Source: an uncultured Bacteroidia bacterium (GTDB lineage Bacteria; Bacteroidota; Bacteroidia; J057; CALLMJ01). From it: DNA of 64,000 bases. Positions 48,704 through 57,478 of this stretch are shown one piece after another. Within the stretch, counting starts at the first letter, position 1. Each line of letters starts with the position of its first letter. The stretch spans positions 13,177 through 77,176 of the forward strand of contig CALLMJ010000091.1 in the NCBI GenBank assembly GCA_938006875.1, written 5' to 3'. The translations under genes and the position numbers were made by a program. The notes beneath the pieces are model-generated. The model ran no database searches. It was given only the letters and a program-made list of their open reading frames with translations, and was not told the origin of the DNA.

Positions 48704-50146
48704 TTAGTTTTTTTGGTTTTCTAAAATTTGTTTACCTATTTTTTTCATGTATTCAAAAGCAGGTTCATATTCATTAGGGATTTCGCCATCTAAAATAGCA
48801 TTCCTGATTGCATTTTTGATTTCACCAATTAATGGAGATGGTTTAATTTGGAAATATTCCATAATGATTTCTCCTGTTATAGGCGGTTGCCAATTTCTTA
48901 AATTATCTAATTCAATTACCTCATGGACTCTTTTTTCTACATAATCATAGTTTTTTAAGTATTTTTCTAACTTGTTGTTATCACGAGTAGTAATATCAGC
49001 ACGGCATAATTTTAATAGTTCATCTAAATCTTCACCTGCATCTACAATCAATCTACGAATAGCAGAATCCGTAACTTCTTCATCTACTAAGGCAATAGGT
49101 CTCAAATGCAGTTTTACCATTTTTTGAACAAATTTCATTTTTTCATTTAAGGGTAAACGCAATTTTTTAAAGATTTGTGGAACCATTTGAGCGCCCTTGT
49201 CTTCATGACCATGGAAAGTCCAACCATGTTGAGGGTAGAATTTTTTAGTTGCGGGTTTTGCAATATCATGTAAAATAGCTGACCATCTTAACCAAAGATT
49301 ATCGGAATAAGGGCATAAATTATCTAAAACTTGGAGGGTATGAAAAAAATTATCTTTATGAGCCTTTCCATTAATGACTTCAACGCCATGCATTTTATAC
49401 AATTCAGGAAAGATAATTTCTAATAACCCTGTGTAAAACAGCATTTTAAACCCAGAAGAGGGTTTATTAGCCATTATAATTTTATTGAGTTCTTCGATGA
49501 TTCTTTCTTTTGAAATAATTTTGATACGACTAGCATTAGTACGAATGGCTTCATAGGTTTTTTTTTCCATAGTAAATTCCAGAGTAGTAGCAAAACGAAT
49601 AGCTCGCATCATTCTTAGTGGGTCGTCACAAAAAGTAACATTTGCATCAGTAGGAGTTTTTATGATTTTATTTTTTAAGTCTTCAAGACCATTAAATGGA
49701 TCTATTAATAAGCCATAATTATCAGGATTTAAAGAAATAGACATTGCATTAATAGTCAAATCTCTACGAAGTTGGTCATCGTATAAACTTCCATTTTCTA
49801 CAATAGGTTTTCGGGAATCTCTTCTATAAGATTCTTTTCTTGTACCCACAAACTCAATTTCCAAATCATCTTTTTTTACTAATGCTGTACCAAAATTTTC
49901 AAATACATTAACTTCAGCACCAATAATTTTAGCAAAAATATTAGCAAATTCAATTCCATAAAGAGGTTTTTCTTCAGGTTGATAATTTTCAGGTGGTTCC
50001 ACAACAATATCAATATCTTTGGATATTTTATCTAAAAAATAGTCTCTAACGAAACCGCCTACCACATAAGCCTTAAATTGGGATTTTTCAATAGCAGTTT
50101 TTATATGCTGAAATATAGGCGCTTGTACAGCTTCTTCAACCGTCAT
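48704..50146 (-). CDS. CCA-adding tRNA nucleotidyltransferase / poly(A) polymerase family protein with an HD domain
   Basis: GGFVRDYFL...DIDIVV nucleotidyltransferase head, RRDLTINAM, and HD-domain residues HDIAKP...HGHEDKG. Confidence 0.8.
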   Translation of the reverse strand: MTVEEAVQAPIFQHIKTAIEKSQFKAYVVGGFVRDYFLDKISKDIDIVVEPPENYQPEEKPLYGIEFANIFAKIIGAEVNVFENFGTALVKKDDLEIEFVGTRKESYRRDSRKPIVENGSLYDDQLRRDLTINAMSISLNPDNYGLLIDPFNGLEDLKNKIIKTPTDANVTFCDDPLRMMRAIRFATTLEFTMEKKTYEAIRTNASRIKIISKERIIEELNKIIMANKPSSGFKMLFYTGLLEIIFPELYKMHGVEVINGKAHKDNFFHTLQVLDNLCPYSDNLWLRWSAILHDIAKPATKKFYPQHGWTFHGHEDKGAQMVPQIFKKLRLPLNEKMKFVQKMVKLHLRPIALVDEEVTDSAIRRLIVDAGEDLDELLKLCRADITTRDNNKLEKYLKNYDYVEKRVHEVIELDNLRNWQPPITGEIIMEYFQIKPSPLIGEIKNAIRNAILDGEIPNEYEPAFEYMKKIGKQILENQKN

Positions 50147-50151
50147 AAGAA

Positions 50152-51042
50152 TTAACCCATCAATAGTTCTAATAGTCTATCTAAATCTTCTTGCGAATAA
50201 TAGGGAATTCTTATTTCTCCTTTGCCGTCTTCTTTATGCTGAATATTCACTTTATTACTAAACTTTTTAGAAAGTTTGATTTCTAAATCTTTGAGATGTA
50301 ATTCTAATGGAGAAGTGCTAGAGGGATTTTTTTTCTGTTGAACTTTGGATTGGGAAAGTTCTTGTACCAATTTTTCAACTTGCCTTACAGATAAGTCTTT
50401 ATCAATAATTTGCTTAAAAACTGAAAGTTGAACAATAGGATTATCTATGGTAATAATAGTTCTAGCGTGTCCCATAGAAATTTTGTTCTCACGAATTGCA
50501 ACTTGAATCTCAGGGGGTAATTTTAAAAGCCTTACATAATTATTAATGGTAGCTCTTTTTTTTCCAATTTTTTCACCAACTTGTTCAAGAGTAAGCCGGC
50601 ATTCCTCCATTAATCTTTTATAACCTAAAGCAATTTCAATGGCATTTAAATCTTCACGCTGTACATTTTCAATGATTGCCATTTCAATCATTTGTTCATC
50701 GTTAGCAGAGCGAATATAAGCAGGAATAGAAGTTAATCCAGCAATTTTAGAAGCTCTGAATCTCCTTTCGCCAGAAATAATTTGGTATTCTTTGTCAGAT
50801 AATTTACGTAAAGTAATAGGCTGTATAATTCCTTGAATTTTAATAGATTCTGCTAATTCTTGTAAAGCATCTTGGTCAAAATCAACACGTGGCTGATAAG
50901 GATTAGGTTCAATCCATTCCAAAGGTATTTCATGAATGGCATTTACAGTTTCAATAGCATTTTCAGTAACTTCATTATTTACAGGAGAAATTAAGGCTCC
51001 AAGACCTTTCCCTAGTACACTTTTTTTCTTTTTTTCTTCCAT
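50152..51042 (-). CDS. parB: Chromosome partitioning protein ParB/Spo0J
   Basis: ParB box PNPYQPR...GIIQPITLR...ISGERRFRA and an HTH region. Confidence 0.92.
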   Translation of the reverse strand: MEEKKKKSVLGKGLGALISPVNNEVTENAIETVNAIHEIPLEWIEPNPYQPRVDFDQDALQELAESIKIQGIIQPITLRKLSDKEYQIISGERRFRASKIAGLTSIPAYIRSANDEQMIEMAIIENVQREDLNAIEIALGYKRLMEECRLTLEQVGEKIGKKRATINNYVRLLKLPPEIQVAIRENKISMGHARTIITIDNPIVQLSVFKQIIDKDLSVRQVEKLVQELSQSKVQQKKNPSSTSPLELHLKDLEIKLSKKFSNKVNIQHKEDGKGEIRIPYYSQEDLDRLLELLMG

Positions 51043-51055
51043 GCTTTAATAAATC

Positions 51056-51853
51056 TTACTCTGCATTTGCAACGCTTGTATCTGGAATATTATTTTTTTT
51101 GAGGATTTCACTGGCTAATTCTGTATATGAAATAGAACCTTTTGAATTAGCATCATATAAAATTACAGGTAAACCAAAAGATGGTGCTTCACTAAGTTTT
51201 GCATTTCTATGAATGATAGTATCGAAAACTATATCTTTAAAATGTAGTTTCACTTCATCTACAACTTGGTTAGCAAGCCTTAATCGTGAATCATACATAG
51301 TAAGTAAAATACCTTCAATTGATAAATTGGGATTTAATTTTTGTTGAACAATTTTTATGGTATTCAAAAGTTTACCAAGACCTTCCAGAGCAAAAAATTC
51401 ACATTGAACAGGGATAATCACGGAATCTGCCGCAGTTAAAGCATTTACAGTAATCAAACCAAGAGAAGGTGAACAATCTATAATAATAAAATCATAATCA
51501 TTTTTGATTTTATCAATTACAGACTTCATTTTTTTTTCTCTATCAGGGAGGTTAATTAATTCAATTTCAGCACCTACTAAATCAATGCTTGAAGGTAACA
51601 AAAATAAATTAGGTACTTTGGTTTGAAGTATAGCTTCATTTGGAGAAAGAACTTCATTAATTATACAATTGTAAATACCCGTTTTTATATTTCTGGGATC
51701 AAAACCTACTCCAGAAGTTGCATTAGCCTGAGGGTCTGTATCTATTAATAAAGTTTTAAAATCTTTCGCTGCTAAACTTGCAGACAAATTGATTGCTGTA
51801 GTAGTTTTTCCAACGCCGCCTTTTTGATTCGCTAAGGTTATGATTTTTCCCAT
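51056..51853 (-). CDS. parA: Chromosome partitioning ATPase ParA/Soj
   Basis: Deviant Walker A NQKGGVGKTTT. Full-length ParA pattern, immediately upstream of parB. Confidence 0.95.
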   Translation of the reverse strand: MGKIITLANQKGGVGKTTTAINLSASLAAKDFKTLLIDTDPQANATSGVGFDPRNIKTGIYNCIINEVLSPNEAILQTKVPNLFLLPSSIDLVGAEIELINLPDREKKMKSVIDKIKNDYDFIIIDCSPSLGLITVNALTAADSVIIPVQCEFFALEGLGKLLNTIKIVQQKLNPNLSIEGILLTMYDSRLRLANQVVDEVKLHFKDIVFDTIIHRNAKLSEAPSFGLPVILYDANSKGSISYTELASEILKKNNIPDTSVANAE

Positions 51854-52006: not shown

Positions 52007-52105
52007 TTTAAACAGAAAATTAATTTATACTCATTATTCTTGTTTATTTTTTCTTGTTTCCTTATTGACTTCTCGGTTATATCTTTACAAAATAATGTTC
52101 TAAAT

Positions 52106-52825
52106 ATGCTCAAGTTTGTTTTTTACTTCACTTTTGTTTATATCTTTATTATTTATGGGACGGGTTGTTCTGTCATAAAAAATTCGCAATCGTCTTCACA
52201 TCCTTTGGTGCATGAAGTTGAAAGAAATTCAATAAGTTTTAAATCTTCAAAAAATAAATTTCCCAAAAATTCTAAAAATTTAGTCCAAGATGTTGAGGAA
52301 AAAAAGAATATTGAAAAAGTATCTGAGGTAAAGATAGCTAAAAAGACAGAAGAAATAACAGTTAGACCCAAAGCAGAAATTATTGAAAAAAATCATAACA
52401 AAAATTCTATTGAAGCAAAAGGGCAAGCTAAAAGCTTAGTGGAAGAAGCTCAAAAATATTTAGGAACTCCTTATAAAATTGGTGGAACCAATAAATCGGG
52501 AATGGATTGTTCAGGATTAGTTATGACGGTTTATCAGACCCAAGGTATTCAATTGCCTAGAATTTCTCCTGACCAATATAAATTTGGGAAACCTATTTCT
52601 GTTGATGAAATTCAACCTGGTGATTTGTTGTTTTTTTCTACTCCTTCTAAGCCTCATCAGATTGGGCATAGTGCTATGTGTGTGGCAATTGAAGATGGAA
52701 AAATCAAGTTTATACATGCCGCTTCAACCGGTGTGAGATACGATTATTTAGTTCCTGGTTACTATCTAACTCATTATAAAGGGGCTTGTAGAGTTTTAGA
52801 TAAAAGTTTATCTTTCAGCAAATAA
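52106..52825 (+). CDS. NlpC/P60 (C40) peptidase lipoprotein; start taken at the ATG at 52106
   Basis: MLKFVFYFTFVYIFIIYGTGCSV (lipobox-like). A Lys/Glu-rich linker follows. The catalytic domain is GTPYKIGGTNKSGMDCSGLV...IGHSAMCV. Confidence 0.85.
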   Translation: MLKFVFYFTFVYIFIIYGTGCSVIKNSQSSSHPLVHEVERNSISFKSSKNKFPKNSKNLVQDVEEKKNIEKVSEVKIAKKTEEITVRPKAEIIEKNHNKNSIEAKGQAKSLVEEAQKYLGTPYKIGGTNKSGMDCSGLVMTVYQTQGIQLPRISPDQYKFGKPISVDEIQPGDLLFFSTPSKPHQIGHSAMCVAIEDGKIKFIHAASTGVRYDYLVPGYYLTHYKGACRVLDKSLSFSK

Positions 52826-52834
52826 ATTTAACAA

Positions 52835-52860
52835 TTTACAAAATGACTTTGTAAAATTTT
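52835..52860. terminator. AT-rich hairpin between convergent genes (possible bidirectional terminator)
   Basis: 8-bp stem TTTACAAA (52835-52842) / TTTGTAAA (52848-52855) followed by ATTTT. The stem is weak because it is AT-only. Confidence 0.4.
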
Positions 52861-52889
52861 AACAGTTCAAATAATTTTTGAGTTATTGG

Positions 52890-53462
52890 TTAATTTTTGT
52901 TATAATGTTCTTGATAGTAACTATCTAAAATTTCATAAAATTCATTTCCAAAGCGTCTAATAATAGCTTGTTTAAGGAATTGATATACAGGAGTTTGATT
53001 TTTTATACCTTTTGAACAAGCACATCTACAAATTTCCCATTCTTCATAATTTACACCAATGATTCCATTTTTTTCCCATAAACGAATAGGATATAAATGA
53101 CAGGAAATAGGTTTTTGAAAATCAATTTTTCCATCTTTCCATGCTTTTTCTATTCCGCATAAAGCAATGCCATTTTCAAAAATCACATAAGCACATTCTT
53201 TTCCATTGACTAATGGGGTAGAAAATTCACCTTTTGAATGTTCAACATATTTGCCTTGTTTTTCAATAGATTTTTTGCCTTTTTCGTTAAGATAGGGTTT
53301 AATTTTTTCGTAAAGTTTATCTAAAATCTCTAATTCGTGGAATTCTAATGGAGCACCTAAGTCTCCTTCAACACAACAATTTCCTTTACATTGGTTAATT
53401 TCGCACTCAAATTTTTCTAAAAAAATATCTTCACTGATTAAGTGATTGTCAATTTGTAGCAT
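52890..53462 (-). CDS. DUF3109-family Cys-rich protein
   Basis: 190 aa. The N-terminal FECEINQCKGNCCVEGDLGAPL matches the conserved C-x-x-C-x-G-x-CC-x-x-G-D-x-GAPL opening of DUF3109 as I remember it. Further Cys pairs occur downstream. Confidence 0.75.
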   Translation of the reverse strand: MLQIDNHLISEDIFLEKFECEINQCKGNCCVEGDLGAPLEFHELEILDKLYEKIKPYLNEKGKKSIEKQGKYVEHSKGEFSTPLVNGKECAYVIFENGIALCGIEKAWKDGKIDFQKPISCHLYPIRLWEKNGIIGVNYEEWEICRCACSKGIKNQTPVYQFLKQAIIRRFGNEFYEILDSYYQEHYNKN

Positions 53463-53464
53463 GG

Positions 53465-55480
53465 TTATTTTTTTTGAAACGCTGGATGTTTTATTTCTTT
53501 ATAACCACCATATTTTGCATAAAGTTCAGGTAAATTTTGTTCTTCTTCAGGATACATTCTTATTAACCAAATAAAATTTCTTTTTTCTACCAAATGTTTC
53601 ATCATGATGTCCTTAGTTTCTTTTTGGCTAAGCTTTACTTTTTTTAGGTTAGGTTCACCATTGCGTTTTCTTAAATTCTTTTCATCTTTGGGTACTAAAA
53701 CTACTAAATGTTTAATGCTTGGTGATTTACGATATTTTACTTTGATTTTTGTAGAGTCTCCATCAACATATCTTACGTATTGAATTAAACGATTTTTAAT
53801 GATATAATCCGTAACAACACTTTTCCCAAATTTTTGAGTCTCTATGATTTGACCCGCTGAAACTCCAGAATAAATAGAATTAAGTTTACAAAAACGTCTT
53901 TTGTTTGTGAAAAAATATTTTAAATCGTCACCCACTCTCTCTAAATTGGATTTGGGTTGAACAATATTCGGATCACAAGGTACTTTGTATTTGTCTAAAG
54001 GTCTATGGCAAATTTTTAAACTTTTATAACAAACATTATCCAATTGTTTATGTTTTACACGGAAAGGTTTTTCACCGCAAGCCAAATCTAATTGCTTATG
54101 TTTCACGCGAAAAGGTTTTTCACCGCAAGCCAAATCTAATTGCTTATGTTTCACGCGGAAAGGTTTTTCACCGCAAGCCAAATCTAATTGCTTATGTTTT
54201 ACGCGGAAAGGTTTTTCACCGCAAGCCAAATCTAATTGCTTATGTGGTACTATTAGTTTTGGATAACAAACATTGTCTAATTGACGATGAGGAATTACTA
54301 ATTTCGGGTAACACATTCTGTCCAAACTTCTATGAGGTACCACAACTTTTGGGTAACAGAAATTTTGGGGATTACCTCTTTTCTGTTTGTATTTGGGCAT
54401 ATTAGCAAAATCTAAATTTTTATGCTTAATTCTTAAACTTTTAGGAGAAATTCCATCTAAACCTCTATGAGACATTCTGTACCTTGGCATGGTAACTCCA
54501 TCATACTGCTTATGTTTCATAGAAATAAAATTTTTAGGATTTCTTGATAACATTACATAACTTGCCGTGGGTATAACAATCAATCCTTTTTTTATTTTTT
54601 GAGCATATTGTTTGGCTACTCTGGTAGGTTTATCCACTTTAAATGCGGGCTCTCTATCTCTTTGTTTTTTAGAGTATATTCTTCTGTTGTCTAAATTCTT
54701 ATGTCTTACAGGGTAAGAAGCCATTCTACGTCTATCCAACTGTTTATGATGAACATGGTAAGAACGCATCGTTTTTAAATCCCTTTGATAATGCTTTTGT
54801 TGATAGTTCGCATATTTACGGCTATCTAAATTTCTATGTTTAACTTGATAGTTCGCATATTTACGGCTATCTAAATTTCTATGTTTAACTTTGTAATTTC
54901 CAGAGAACTTTTTGTTATCGAGTGAATTATGTCTTTTTTGATATTGAGAATAACTTTTGTTATCTAAGCGATTATGTTTTTGTTTGTAATTACCCGCAAA
55001 TCTTTTGTTGTCTAAGGAATTATGTTTTACTCGGTATTGAGGGATATTGACGTTATCAAGCCCTTTTCTACGAATTTTATTTTTATTACCATAAGTTACA
55101 TAATCTAAACTTTTAGGTTTATATCGTTTAATACGGTAAGGGTTTTGGGCTTTATCTAAAGTTTTATGGTATTTTTTAGGATTTTTTTCTCTAAAAGCCT
55201 GAAGTTTTTGTTGAAATTTTTGACGTTTTTTTTGTTGAGCTTGGAACTGCTTAGCTTTTGCAATTTGTTGTTTTCTTAAATGTTTTATATTTACTTGTTT
55301 CTTTTTATGAGGCGTAAACTTGGCTTCTTTTCTGTGATTTCTATGACTTGGATTACAAGTTGGACCTGTACAAGGTTTAAACTCTTGTTCATCTTGTGCA
55401 TTGACAATCAACGGATTAGCCAACAACAAGAAGCCCCAAATCAATAAAATTATTTTATATGGACTCAAAAAGTTTCGCAA
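53465..55480 (-). CDS. Exported, extremely basic repeat protein of unknown function (671 aa, about 20 degenerate H-[KRN]-x-L-D repeats)
   Basis: TTG start as listed. Signal-peptide-like MRNFLSPYKIILLIWGFLLLANPLIVNAQ. Lys/Arg/His/Gln-rich body with recurring (V/I/Q)(K/R/P)H(K/R/N)xLD every 14-16 residues. A non-repetitive C-terminal region of about 170 aa. I recognise no family. Confidence 0.8.
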   Translation of the reverse strand: MRNFLSPYKIILLIWGFLLLANPLIVNAQDEQEFKPCTGPTCNPSHRNHRKEAKFTPHKKKQVNIKHLRKQQIAKAKQFQAQQKKRQKFQQKLQAFREKNPKKYHKTLDKAQNPYRIKRYKPKSLDYVTYGNKNKIRRKGLDNVNIPQYRVKHNSLDNKRFAGNYKQKHNRLDNKSYSQYQKRHNSLDNKKFSGNYKVKHRNLDSRKYANYQVKHRNLDSRKYANYQQKHYQRDLKTMRSYHVHHKQLDRRRMASYPVRHKNLDNRRIYSKKQRDREPAFKVDKPTRVAKQYAQKIKKGLIVIPTASYVMLSRNPKNFISMKHKQYDGVTMPRYRMSHRGLDGISPKSLRIKHKNLDFANMPKYKQKRGNPQNFCYPKVVVPHRSLDRMCYPKLVIPHRQLDNVCYPKLIVPHKQLDLACGEKPFRVKHKQLDLACGEKPFRVKHKQLDLACGEKPFRVKHKQLDLACGEKPFRVKHKQLDNVCYKSLKICHRPLDKYKVPCDPNIVQPKSNLERVGDDLKYFFTNKRRFCKLNSIYSGVSAGQIIETQKFGKSVVTDYIIKNRLIQYVRYVDGDSTKIKVKYRKSPSIKHLVVLVPKDEKNLRKRNGEPNLKKVKLSQKETKDIMMKHLVEKRNFIWLIRMYPEEEQNLPELYAKYGGYKEIKHPAFQKK
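54041..54243 (-). repeat. Four near-perfect 48-nt tandem repeats inside the basic repeat-protein gene
   Basis: CACCGCAAGCC recurs at 54073, 54121, 54169 and 54217 (period 48 nt). The repeats encode 4 x HKQLDLACGEKPFRVK. Confidence 0.95.
54801..54890 (-). repeat. Perfect 45-nt tandem duplication inside the basic repeat-protein gene
   Basis: TGATAGTTCGCATATTTACGGCTATCTAAATTTCTATGTTTAACT occurs at 54801-54845 and again at 54846-54890. It encodes 2 x a 15-aa unit containing VKHRNLDSRKYANYQ. Confidence 0.95.
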
Positions 55481-55858
55481 GAGTGAGTTTTAACAATTTG
55501 CAAATATGCTATAATTTTTATTAAAAAACCAAAAAAGTTTTTCCACTTATGAACAAAATAACCCACATCAATCCAAATACAAAGGATTAATCCACGTATC
55601 CATTTTAGGATTCATTTAAATAACCTTTCAGTCCAATGTTTGAATGAAGTAAATGTTTAAATAATCTTTCAATAAAAATTAACTCTAAAACTATTTTTTT
55701 AAAATCTACTTATGTAAAACAAAAAATGAGAATTTTTATTAACTATTTTCTTGATATTAATGTTATTATGTAGGTTTAAGCTAAAAAAATTGTTAAACTT
55801 TAAAAAACTATTTGCTTAAAAAAAGTTTTTTAATTAATATTGCCAAAAATTCCGTTTT

Positions 55859-57478
55859 ATGAAAAAAATACTTTGTATCGTAGCGTTATTGCTAAATTTA
55901 GGTTTGTTTGCTCAAAATTTTCAAATTGGGCATCGCACAATAAGCCCAATTGACTCATCAAGAAGCAATCGAGTAATTCAAGATACAGAAATTTATTATC
56001 CCGCAAATACAGCGGGAGATAATGTGCCTGTAGCCAATGGAGAATTTCCTGTAATTGTTTTTGGTCATGGTTTTACAATCCGTTGGGACGCTTACAATTA
56101 CATTTGGGAATATTTTGTACCCAAAGGATACATTTGTATTTTTCCACGAACGGAGGGTAACATCAGCCCTAATCATGCGAATTTTGGTGGAGATTTGAAG
56201 TTTTTAGCTCAATGGATACAACAACAAAATGGTATCAATACATCGCCCTTTTATGGAAAAGTAAAAAATAGAGCGGCTGTAATGGGGCATTCTATGGGGG
56301 GAGGTTCCACCTATCTAGCGGCATCAGGAAATAATGTTTTTACAACCATAGTATCTTTAGCCGCCGCAGAGACAAATCCTTCTGCTAAATCTGCCGCTAA
56401 TCAAGTTACTTGCCCCGTCCTAAGCATTGCAGGCGAAGAAGATTGCGTAACACCACCTAATCAGCACCAAATCCCAATCTTTGATAGCCTCGCATCCACA
56501 GTAAAATATTACACAGAATTAAAGGGCTCTTCTCATTGTAATTTTACCAGTAGCGGAGCCTCTACTTGTTTTTCTGCCGAAGGATTGAGTTGTATAGGAT
56601 ACGGTCCATTTATTTCAAGGCAGGAACAAAATACACGTACCTTACGCGTGGCAGAGCATTGGATTGAATTTTTCTTGAAAGAACGTTGTGCTTCTTGGCA
56701 ACAATTTATGGATACGCTACAAGCTTATATTGCTAATCAGAATATTACTGCAAACCAACAAATTGGTACTCCGACTATGTTTCAGCCTGCACAGCCTTCT
56801 GTGAACCCAGTAAGTATTTGTTCAGGAAATTCTGCTACATTAAATGCTACTGACCCAGCTGGAGCAACCTTTCTGTGGTATTCCCAAGTATCTGGTGGTA
56901 CCCCGCTTTACACGGGAAATTCTTTTACTACCCCCAGTCTTAACAATAACACCACTTACTACGTTGAAACAGTGCTTAATACCTGTACTTCCAACCGAAA
57001 AAGTGTAACGGTTACAGTAAATACTGCTCAAACTCCTACGATAACTTTAAATGGTAACATCTTACAGTCCAGTACTGCTTCCTCTTATCAATGGTTTTTG
57101 AATGGAAATCCGATTCCTGGAGCTACGCAACAAACCTACAATCCCTCACAAAATGGTAGTTATACCGTTCAAATTACTGATGCTAATGGTTGTACCGCTA
57201 CATCTGCACCTTTCAATTATAGTACAACTTCTTTTCATTCCAATTTAACAGAAGATTTAAAGATTTATCCTAATCCTACTTGCGGTAACATTTTGCACGT
57301 CAAAGCTTTTTCTTACGAGAATTTAGAATATCAAATTGTGGATTTACAAGGCAGAATTTTACAATCTGGGACGTTAGATAGCGATAGCATTACTTTGAAG
57401 GATTTGACGGACGGAATGTATTTTATAAAACTATTTAAAAAAGATTTTTCGTTTGTTGGTAAATTTATAAAGAATTAG
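55859..57478 (+). CDS. Secreted alpha/beta hydrolase (dienelactone-hydrolase/cutinase-like esterase) with Ig-like modules and a T9SS type-A C-terminal sorting domain
   Basis: Signal peptide. FPVIVFGHGFT, nucleophile elbow GHSMGGG, GEEDCVTP (Asp) and GSSHCNF (His). Ig-like ICSGNSATLNA...TYYVE. CTD LKIYPNPTCGNILHV...IVDLQGRIL...GMYFIKL. Confidence 0.75.
   Translation: MKKILCIVALLLNLGLFAQNFQIGHRTISPIDSSRSNRVIQDTEIYYPANTAGDNVPVANGEFPVIVFGHGFTIRWDAYNYIWEYFVPKGYICIFPRTEGNISPNHANFGGDLKFLAQWIQQQNGINTSPFYGKVKNRAAVMGHSMGGGSTYLAASGNNVFTTIVSLAAAETNPSAKSAANQVTCPVLSIAGEEDCVTPPNQHQIPIFDSLASTVKYYTELKGSSHCNFTSSGASTCFSAEGLSCIGYGPFISRQEQNTRTLRVAEHWIEFFLKERCASWQQFMDTLQAYIANQNITANQQIGTPTMFQPAQPSVNPVSICSGNSATLNATDPAGATFLWYSQVSGGTPLYTGNSFTTPSLNNNTTYYVETVLNTCTSNRKSVTVTVNTAQTPTITLNGNILQSSTASSYQWFLNGNPIPGATQQTYNPSQNGSYTVQITDANGCTATSAPFNYSTTSFHSNLTEDLKIYPNPTCGNILHVKAFSYENLEYQIVDLQGRILQSGTLDSDSITLKDLTDGMYFIKLFKKDFSFVGKFIKN

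Follow-up and report, generated by a model that had tools for sequence, protein, structure and literature searches.

What is the role of a protein that is built largely from a short motif, H-[KRN]-x-L-D, recurring every 14-16 residues in an extremely basic sequence, and is such a protein genuine? The question was raised by a gene at positions 53465-55480 (minus strand) of a 64,000-nucleotide stretch of contig CALLMJ010000091.1 (assembly GCA_938006875.1, positions 13,177 to 77,176) from an uncultured Bacteroidia bacterium, referred to here as the window. The open reading frame (ORF) started with TTG, ended with TAA at 53465-53467 and encoded 671 amino acids (aa; about 80 kDa), and the ORF listing of the window contained no second ORF of at least 60 aa overlapping it. 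The product contained 107 Lys, 53 Arg, 29 His and 53 acidic residues (Asp plus Glu), which gave a net charge of +107 and an isoelectric point (pI) of 10.2, in agreement with the hyper-basic 671-aa protein described by an earlier sequence-only reading. Lys and Arg together made up 24% of the residues, and His only 4%. The analysis showed that the gene is real and conserved, and its product is predicted to be exported to the envelope, where it may hold on to anionic polymers.

Homologues of the protein were searched for at two scales. A search of 5.8 billion proteins found two distant homologues and four close ones, the latter 68-76% identical along their whole length, and an exhaustive phmmer search of 1.84 billion cluster representatives gave 55 matches. 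The ratio of nonsynonymous to synonymous substitution rates (dN/dS) was calculated against three orthologues, with dS saturated or nearly so. It was 0.03 in the C-terminal domain, 0.031 in the Cys-bearing repeat block (against the orthologue in locus L005), 0.04-0.19 in repeat block 1 and 0.07-0.10 in the N-terminal helix region (residues 59-112). Values of 0.03-0.19 in the repeats, with block 2 on a par with the folded domain, mean that selection constrains the amino-acid sequence of the repeats, which argues against a merely compositional spacer. A spurious or decaying ORF was ruled out by the low dN/dS together with the existing orthologues. The gene is therefore real, conserved and functional and is under strong purifying selection that includes the repeats; the sequence-only reading had allowed that it might be decaying or without homologues, and it is neither. 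An Rfam scan of the whole window gave no match. Plasmid and phage sequences, searched by tblastn with the C-terminal domain, gave none either, so no sign of a mobile origin was found.

The protein could not be assigned to a described family. The best Pfam match of the full protein was not significant (E 0.46, 10.8 bits), and searches of NCBIfam, PHROGs and PADLOC returned 0 families. When the PDB was searched by sequence with the C-terminal profile and both repeat blocks, nothing significant was obtained, the only matches being triabin and a TIR protein (E 0.55 and 1.5). The repeat thus matches no family in these collections, as had been suspected from the sequence.

The family is defined by the C-terminal 172 aa and not by the repeats. 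This domain (residues 500-671; 53468-53983, minus strand, as for all features of the gene given below) reads VPCDPN ... ETKxIM ... WLxRMYPEExN, and a profile made from five C-terminal regions matched 62 of the 67 fetched proteins. The exceptions were long eukaryotic proteins, including a C2H2 zinc-finger protein. The eukaryotic representatives P0038, P0048, P0061, P0063 and P0066 had no C-terminal domain and were rejected as artefacts of the repeat region or of composition. Near-invariant positions in the domain (window numbering) were C531, G543, G552, E621-T622-K623 and Y643-P644-E645-E646. AlphaFold2 modelled it with a mean predicted local distance difference test (pLDDT) score of 85.4 and a predicted template-modelling (TM) score of 0.70, and predicted a helix, a long β-hairpin, a strand and three helices. 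No relatives of the domain are detectable by sequence or structure search: no Pfam family was matched by more than two of 41 C-terminal domains, and the best Foldseek matches of the model had E 0.25 in the PDB and 0.15 in BFVD, with TM scores of about 0.2 or below over the query. Several members (P0013, P0033, P0034, P0036, P0039 and P0040; about 180-220 aa) consisted only of a signal peptide and this domain. The non-repetitive C-terminal region of about 170 aa noticed earlier is thus non-repetitive and 172 aa long, but it is the family-defining part and not a mere tail, and the repeat array is therefore an accessory, ancient but dispensable.

The family comprised about 50-60 clusters, and all named or titled records came from metagenome-assembled genomes (MAGs) of uncultured Bacteroidia or Bacteroidota, and several came from metagenomes of hot springs or mats. 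When the 41-sequence profile was used for a third protein search, it contributed only 3 proteins, and a scan of a genome collection only 3 MAG loci. Distant members kept the full layout at 36-46% identity in the C-terminal domain. In the distant loci with a C-terminal domain 36-38% identical, the ORFs encoded a signal peptide, Cys-free basic repeats (in L021, for example, PIPRQTQHKQLNRYNM in about 10 copies), repeats of the type CYPxhxhKHKDLSxx and the C-terminal domain. The Cys-bearing repeat type of block 2 was also present in distant P0005, P0006, P0011, L011, L021 and L024. The ORFs in L021, L011 and L024 had net charges of +65 to +114 and pI values of 10.5-11.4, and contained 19-30 H-x-x-[LFMIV]-[DNSEQ] motifs at a spacing of 15-16 aa, compared with about 2 expected by chance. 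Arg was used in these distant members in place of the Lys of the window protein, so it is the charge, the motif and the period that are conserved and not the composition.

In the window protein, the strict motif occurred 18 times. When its residues were shuffled 2000 times, the motif turned up 0.07 times on average and never more than twice. Counted in register, 24 units could be placed, most of them 15-16 aa long; they fell into two blocks (residues 101-276 and 319-499), and the earlier estimate of about 20 repeats is thereby borne out. Block 1 (54653-55180) was formed by 12 Cys-free units of 15-17 aa with the pattern Y-x-V-K-H-[RKN]-x-L-D-[NS]-[RK]-[RK]-Y-A-N. It was followed by a non-repeat linker (residues 277-318, EPAFKVDKPTRVAKQYAQKIKKGLIVIPTASYVMLSRNPKNF; 54527-54652) that was conserved in the alignment of close orthologues. 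Block 2 (53984-54526) also had 12 units, of the types C-Y-P-K-L-V-I-P-H-[RK]-x-L-D-x-x or C-G-E-K-P-F-R-V-K-H-K-Q-L-D-L-A where Cys was present. Each of its last nine units carried one Cys at a fixed position (nine Cys, residues 375-491) and no other repeat unit did, so the addition of one Cys per later repeat, claimed before, applies to the second block only. In a position matrix centred on the invariant His (0), positions -4 and -2 were hydrophobic and positions -3, -1 and +1 basic, with Leu at +3 and Asp, Asn or Ser at +4.

Part of the array is very young, because its DNA copies were nearly identical: a 48-bp repeat was present in 4.3 copies at 95% identity (54038-54245, within block 2), and a 45-bp unit was duplicated at 100% identity (54800-54891, within block 1). 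The CGE[KR]PFRVKHKQLD unit was found in 1 to 5 copies across orthologues, and the copies were identical within a lineage but different between lineages, which indicates ongoing duplication and loss or concerted evolution. It is strongly supported that the copy number changes quickly through in-frame tandem duplication. The array also affected the records themselves. Contigs broke inside it (L013 started, and L014 and L018 ended, within repeats), P0012 was annotated as 188 aa although the open frame in L011 (4648-6567) encoded about 620 aa including a signal peptide, and in L010 (5562-6762) P0009 overlapped an upstream 149-aa call, a possible frameshift or assembly error. Since the repeats break assemblies and mislead gene callers, the family counts and lengths in the databases are underestimated.

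The full-length AlphaFold2 model, built from a shallow alignment of 26 sequences, assigned no secondary structure to either repeat block, where pLDDT was 34-46. The ordered parts were the signal-peptide helix, a helix at residues 59-112, a short linker helix at 290-297 (pLDDT about 70) and the C-terminal domain. The sequence-only reading had suggested AlphaFold as a means of telling a solenoid from disorder; no solenoid was obtained, the repeats being left unmodelled. The blocks may be disordered, may need binding or oxidation in order to fold, or may be beyond the reach of so shallow an alignment.

The N-terminus was read as a signal peptide of residues 1-28 (55397-55480), with the layout MRNFLSPYK / IILLIWGFLLLANPLIV / NA|QDEQEF: the n-region is basic, the h-region is 17 residues long, and the predicted cleavage site lies between a small residue (-1) and Gln (+1). 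These are the features of a Sec/signal peptidase I (SPI) substrate that follows the Q-rule, and Gln at +1 after cleavage describes most SPI-exported proteins of Bacteroidetes (PMC5837995, PMC10653852). In every full-length family member, the hydrophobic N-terminal core was followed by [A/G/S]-Q, and the N-terminal signal seen in the earlier reading thus looks cleavable. The n-flank of the core was positive and the 15 residues after it were net negative in the close clade; the mature protein would begin with acidic residues (QDEQEF), and this may be what allows so basic a protein to pass through Sec. A C-x-G-P-x-C loop (C37-T-G-P-T-C42; 55355-55372) lay just past the signal peptide, and most full-length repeat-bearing members (P0001-4, 6, 21, 22, 24, 30, 41, 44 and 51) carried the same loop at a distance of 20-40 residues from their N-terminus. 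Of the 13 Cys of the protein, the conserved pairs C37-x4-C42 and C502/C531 (the latter at least 90% conserved), suggest disulfides and fit an oxidising compartment. Next came a long basic K/Q-rich α-helix (residues 59-112; 55145-55306), modelled as two helices (59-99 and 101-112), in which residues 70-100 reached a pLDDT of about 90. By prediction, the protein is exported via Sec, is cut by SPI before Q29, and is either periplasmic or linked to the envelope in another way. Two other export classes were rejected. A lipoprotein signal (SPII) had no lipobox Cys, the first Cys being residue 37, nine residues past the predicted cleavage site. For cargo of the type IX secretion system (T9SS), no PF18962 (Por_Secre_tail) or NCBIfam match was found and the modelled C-terminal domain was mixed α/β with three terminal helices; the same search detected Por_Secre_tail in the neighbouring gene 55859-57478 (5.2e-11).

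Taken as a whole, the protein is modular and probably exported: a Cx4C loop, a 54-residue basic helix and two blocks of H-x-x-L-[D/N/S] repeats are joined to a folded 172-aa C-terminal domain. The C-terminal domain, which also occurs alone behind a signal peptide and is therefore taken as the constant module, would be the working or anchoring head. The repeat array would act as a multivalent polycationic arm, each unit contributing an alternating hydrophobic/basic stretch that ends in the invariant His. Acting together, the units would keep the protein attached to an anionic polymer or surface of the envelope or matrix, such as lipopolysaccharide (LPS), anionic phospholipid, peptidoglycan, extracellular DNA or polysaccharide. 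The most likely role, which we propose tentatively from the charge, the alternating hydrophobic/basic pattern and a few envelope-gene neighbours, is thus multivalent binding of anionic polymers by an envelope protein. Those neighbours were scattered, in single lineages only: LptC before P0013, PorV encoded upstream of P0009, and a transglycosylase of the SLT/LysM type near P0006 and P0012.

Several observations weigh against this role. A net charge of +107 is unusual for a Sec passenger, and by the positive-inside rule it would favour the cytoplasm. The low pLDDT of the repeats could stem from the shallow alignment and not from true disorder. The strict invariance of His and Leu, with dN/dS down to 0.03, points to something more specific than bulk electrostatics. 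Finally, no neighbour was conserved across the family in the fetched loci, and hence there was no pointer to a pathway. A more far-reaching version of the proposal, which we regard as doubtful, is that the H-x-x-L-[D/N/S] array is a new sequence-specific module of Cys-punctuated cationic amphipathic strands that would coat or cross-link LPS/phospholipid or peptidoglycan. With a C-terminal domain of unseen fold, it would then form a Bacteroidota-specific system for stabilising or tethering the envelope, its reach tuned by the gain and loss of repeats.

Envelope proteins that combine a signal peptide, variable tandem repeats and a folded C-terminal domain are familiar; for the repeat motif and the domain no relatives have been described. 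If anionic-polymer binding is correct, the protein would be a component of the envelope not described before, all records of it to date being from uncultured Bacteroidota. It could provide a further answer to how the envelope is organised or stabilised in diderms without Braun's lipoprotein, or to how matrix polymers are bound. Export being predicted, a Sec passenger with a net charge above +100 would be possible. At present this is a well-documented "conserved hypothetical" family, and no mechanism has been discovered.

The gene directly downstream encodes a Cys-rich DUF3109 protein (PF11307, now labelled Rv0495c; 52890-53462, minus strand, 190 aa) without a signal peptide. Its residues 1-179 matched profile positions 1-180/181 with E 2.3e-72 and 243 bits (cutoff 33.5), and its ATG (53462) was separated from the TAA of the repeat gene by a gap of 2 nt, exactly as first noted. 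No terminator-like site was found within 52700-55900. Conservation of the pair was examined by tblastn in 24 fetched loci. DUF3109 lay directly downstream (gap of at most 5 nt) in all seven close lineages, in which the C-terminal domain was at least 90% identical (the window, L013, L017, L018, L005, L004 = L014 and L006 = L007 = L019), and these showed at least four different sets of flanking genes. It was absent from the flanks of all nine distant lineages (C-terminal identity at most 46%), so the linkage is not a property of the family. Given the 2-nt gap, the lack of a terminator-like site in that interval and the retention of the pair in all close lineages, the two genes are probably co-transcribed within this narrow clade; the earlier suggestion of co-transcription is thus plausible, whereas conservation of the pair holds only among close relatives. 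The DUF3109 product is cytoplasmic and not a general partner of the family, and no evidence was found that both products act together. The only functional data on the DUF3109 family, those for M. tuberculosis Rv0495c, concern cytosolic redox balance, its deletion raising reactive oxygen species and susceptibility to free iron (bioRxiv 10.1101/2023.08.22.554105).

The DUF3109 link bears on another explanation, by which the His, the Asp at i+4 and the later Cys of the repeats would form a metal- or haem-binding array, a periplasmic buffer or store possibly tied to the Cys-rich DUF3109 protein. The His was invariant in every unit family-wide, the H-x-x-x-D spacing suits one face of a helix, and the Cys-bearing part of block 2 supplied one Cys per unit; the tight linkage in the close clade and the free-iron phenotype of the Rv0495c deletion would fit as well. 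We nevertheless consider such an array unlikely, because His is scarce beside Lys and Arg and the dense positive charge disfavours cation binding. Moreover, position +4 is Asn or Ser and not Asp in distant members, block 1 is free of Cys, and DUF3109, having no signal peptide, would reside in another compartment and is absent beside distant members.

A second explanation takes the repeats as a regular rod or solenoid with one unit per turn, possibly with a disulfide ladder, which would serve in the envelope as an adjustable spacer or ruler between the C-terminal domain and the N-terminal helix. The strict period of 15-16 aa, the fixed Cys position, the strong constraint and the variation of copy number between lineages are all compatible with it, and the conserved Leu and [D/N/S] recall the core and ladder positions of solenoids. 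AlphaFold usually models solenoids confidently; here, from a shallow alignment, both blocks stayed below pLDDT 50 without secondary structure. A richness in Lys, Arg, Asn, Gln, Ser and Pro is typical of disorder, and the number of Cys in the repeat region is odd (nine). We regard a rod as unlikely.

It is less probable still that the protein is not exported, with the N-terminal segment serving as a membrane anchor and the polycationic body staying in the cytoplasm to bind nucleic acid or membrane. The extreme charge would be retained inside by the positive-inside rule, and in some distant members basic residues directly follow the putative cleavage site. Against this stand the [A/G/S]-Q after the core in all full-length members and the net negative 15 residues behind it in the close clade, as well as the Cys pairs that suggest disulfides; in addition, no known DNA-binding domain was matched. 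A polyprotein precursor cut into cationic antimicrobial or signalling peptides of 15-16 aa, perhaps modified by the DUF3109 product, would fit the identical, recently duplicated units, their basic flanks and the tightly linked Cys-rich gene, but it is most improbable since a conserved folded C-terminal domain and repeat-less members are unsuited to a precursor, no protease, transporter or immunity gene lies nearby, and DUF3109 is cytoplasmic and absent beside distant members.

The predicted envelope protein was also compared with known systems. TonB and TolA likewise have an N-terminal hydrophobic segment, a long charged repetitive or helical region and a small folded C-terminal domain. In contrast to them, the N-terminus of the window protein looks cleavable (VNA|Q) and has no TonB-type SHLS motif, and its repeats are H-x-x-L-D and not Pro-Lys/Pro-Glu. 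An assignment to TonB/TolA was rejected, as there was no TonB_C or TolA match in Pfam, no Foldseek match in the PDB and no exbBD or tolQR gene nearby. LPS-binding cationic β-hairpins (the Limulus anti-LPS factor loop and those of the tachyplesin/protegrin type) share positive charge and alternating hydrophobic/basic stretches bracketed by Cys, a resemblance of possible action only. Unlike these hairpins, the window repeats carry one Cys per 15-16-aa unit, which is not paired within a hairpin, and belong to an 80-kDa protein; there is no sequence homology and no hairpin is predicted in the repeats. With C2H2 zinc-finger arrays, the likeness came from phmmer, which matched eukaryotic P0066, P0048 and P0063 through ACGEKPF...KH...L, a string resembling the H-TGEKPY-x-C linker. 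The unit has one Cys and one His (C-x8-H) and not C-x2-4-C-x12-H-x3-5-H, and no Pfam zf-C2H2 match was obtained, so this was set aside as an artefact. The Q-rule substrates of Bacteroidota, whose Gln at +1 the window protein and its family share, are a targeting class and not a functional family, and the likeness is silent on function.

Upstream of the gene, 80 nt (55481-55560, minus strand) were strongly conserved in an alignment of four orthologous upstream regions, which contained long stretches without variation and the same TTG start throughout. The Bacteroidetes -7 promoter consensus is TAnnTTTG. The region contained a ATATTTGC box (55500-55507) with one mismatch to this consensus, and the start codon lay about 20 nt downstream of it; judged in this way, the box may be a promoter element. 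In an alignment of 55481-55640 from the window, L004, L005 and L006, the conservation reached past the -7-like box and included GTGGAAAAACTTTTTTGGTTTTTT about 55 nt before the start. This wider stretch may have a regulatory function or represent a -33/UP-like element.

Further observations concerned the neighbouring genes. In L008 (5419-6648), the gene of the repeat-less P0013 (215 aa) was located 30 nt downstream of a same-strand gene with an LptC domain, and SprA was encoded about 3.5 kb beyond. The adjacency to LptC, seen in this one lineage, hints at a connection with the envelope or LPS. In L002 (6001-9924), the gene of a PstS-like periplasmic binding protein followed P0005 after 7 nt and was itself followed by a tetratricopeptide repeat (TPR) gene. 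A pair of PstS-like and TPR genes commonly follows tonB in the exbBD-tonB clusters of Bacteroidota; no exbBD was present in this locus. The divergent neighbour of the repeat gene in the window (55859-57478, plus strand) encodes a secreted esterase, a PETase-like or chlorophyllase-like α/β-hydrolase with two CHU_C-associated Ig_7 domains and a T9SS Por_Secre_tail. Genes for NlpC/P60, ParA, ParB and the CCA-adding enzyme were found both in the window (52040-52825, plus strand; 48704-51853, minus strand) and in L005 (3707-7825), rearranged relative to the pair of repeat gene and DUF3109. Since shared flanking genes were rearranged around them, the two genes of the pair have changed position together between close relatives. 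Near the orthologous locus, L005 (1-3581; KatS3mg035 MAG) also contained two adjacent GmrSD_N (DUF262) genes, which are candidates for type IV restriction or defence.

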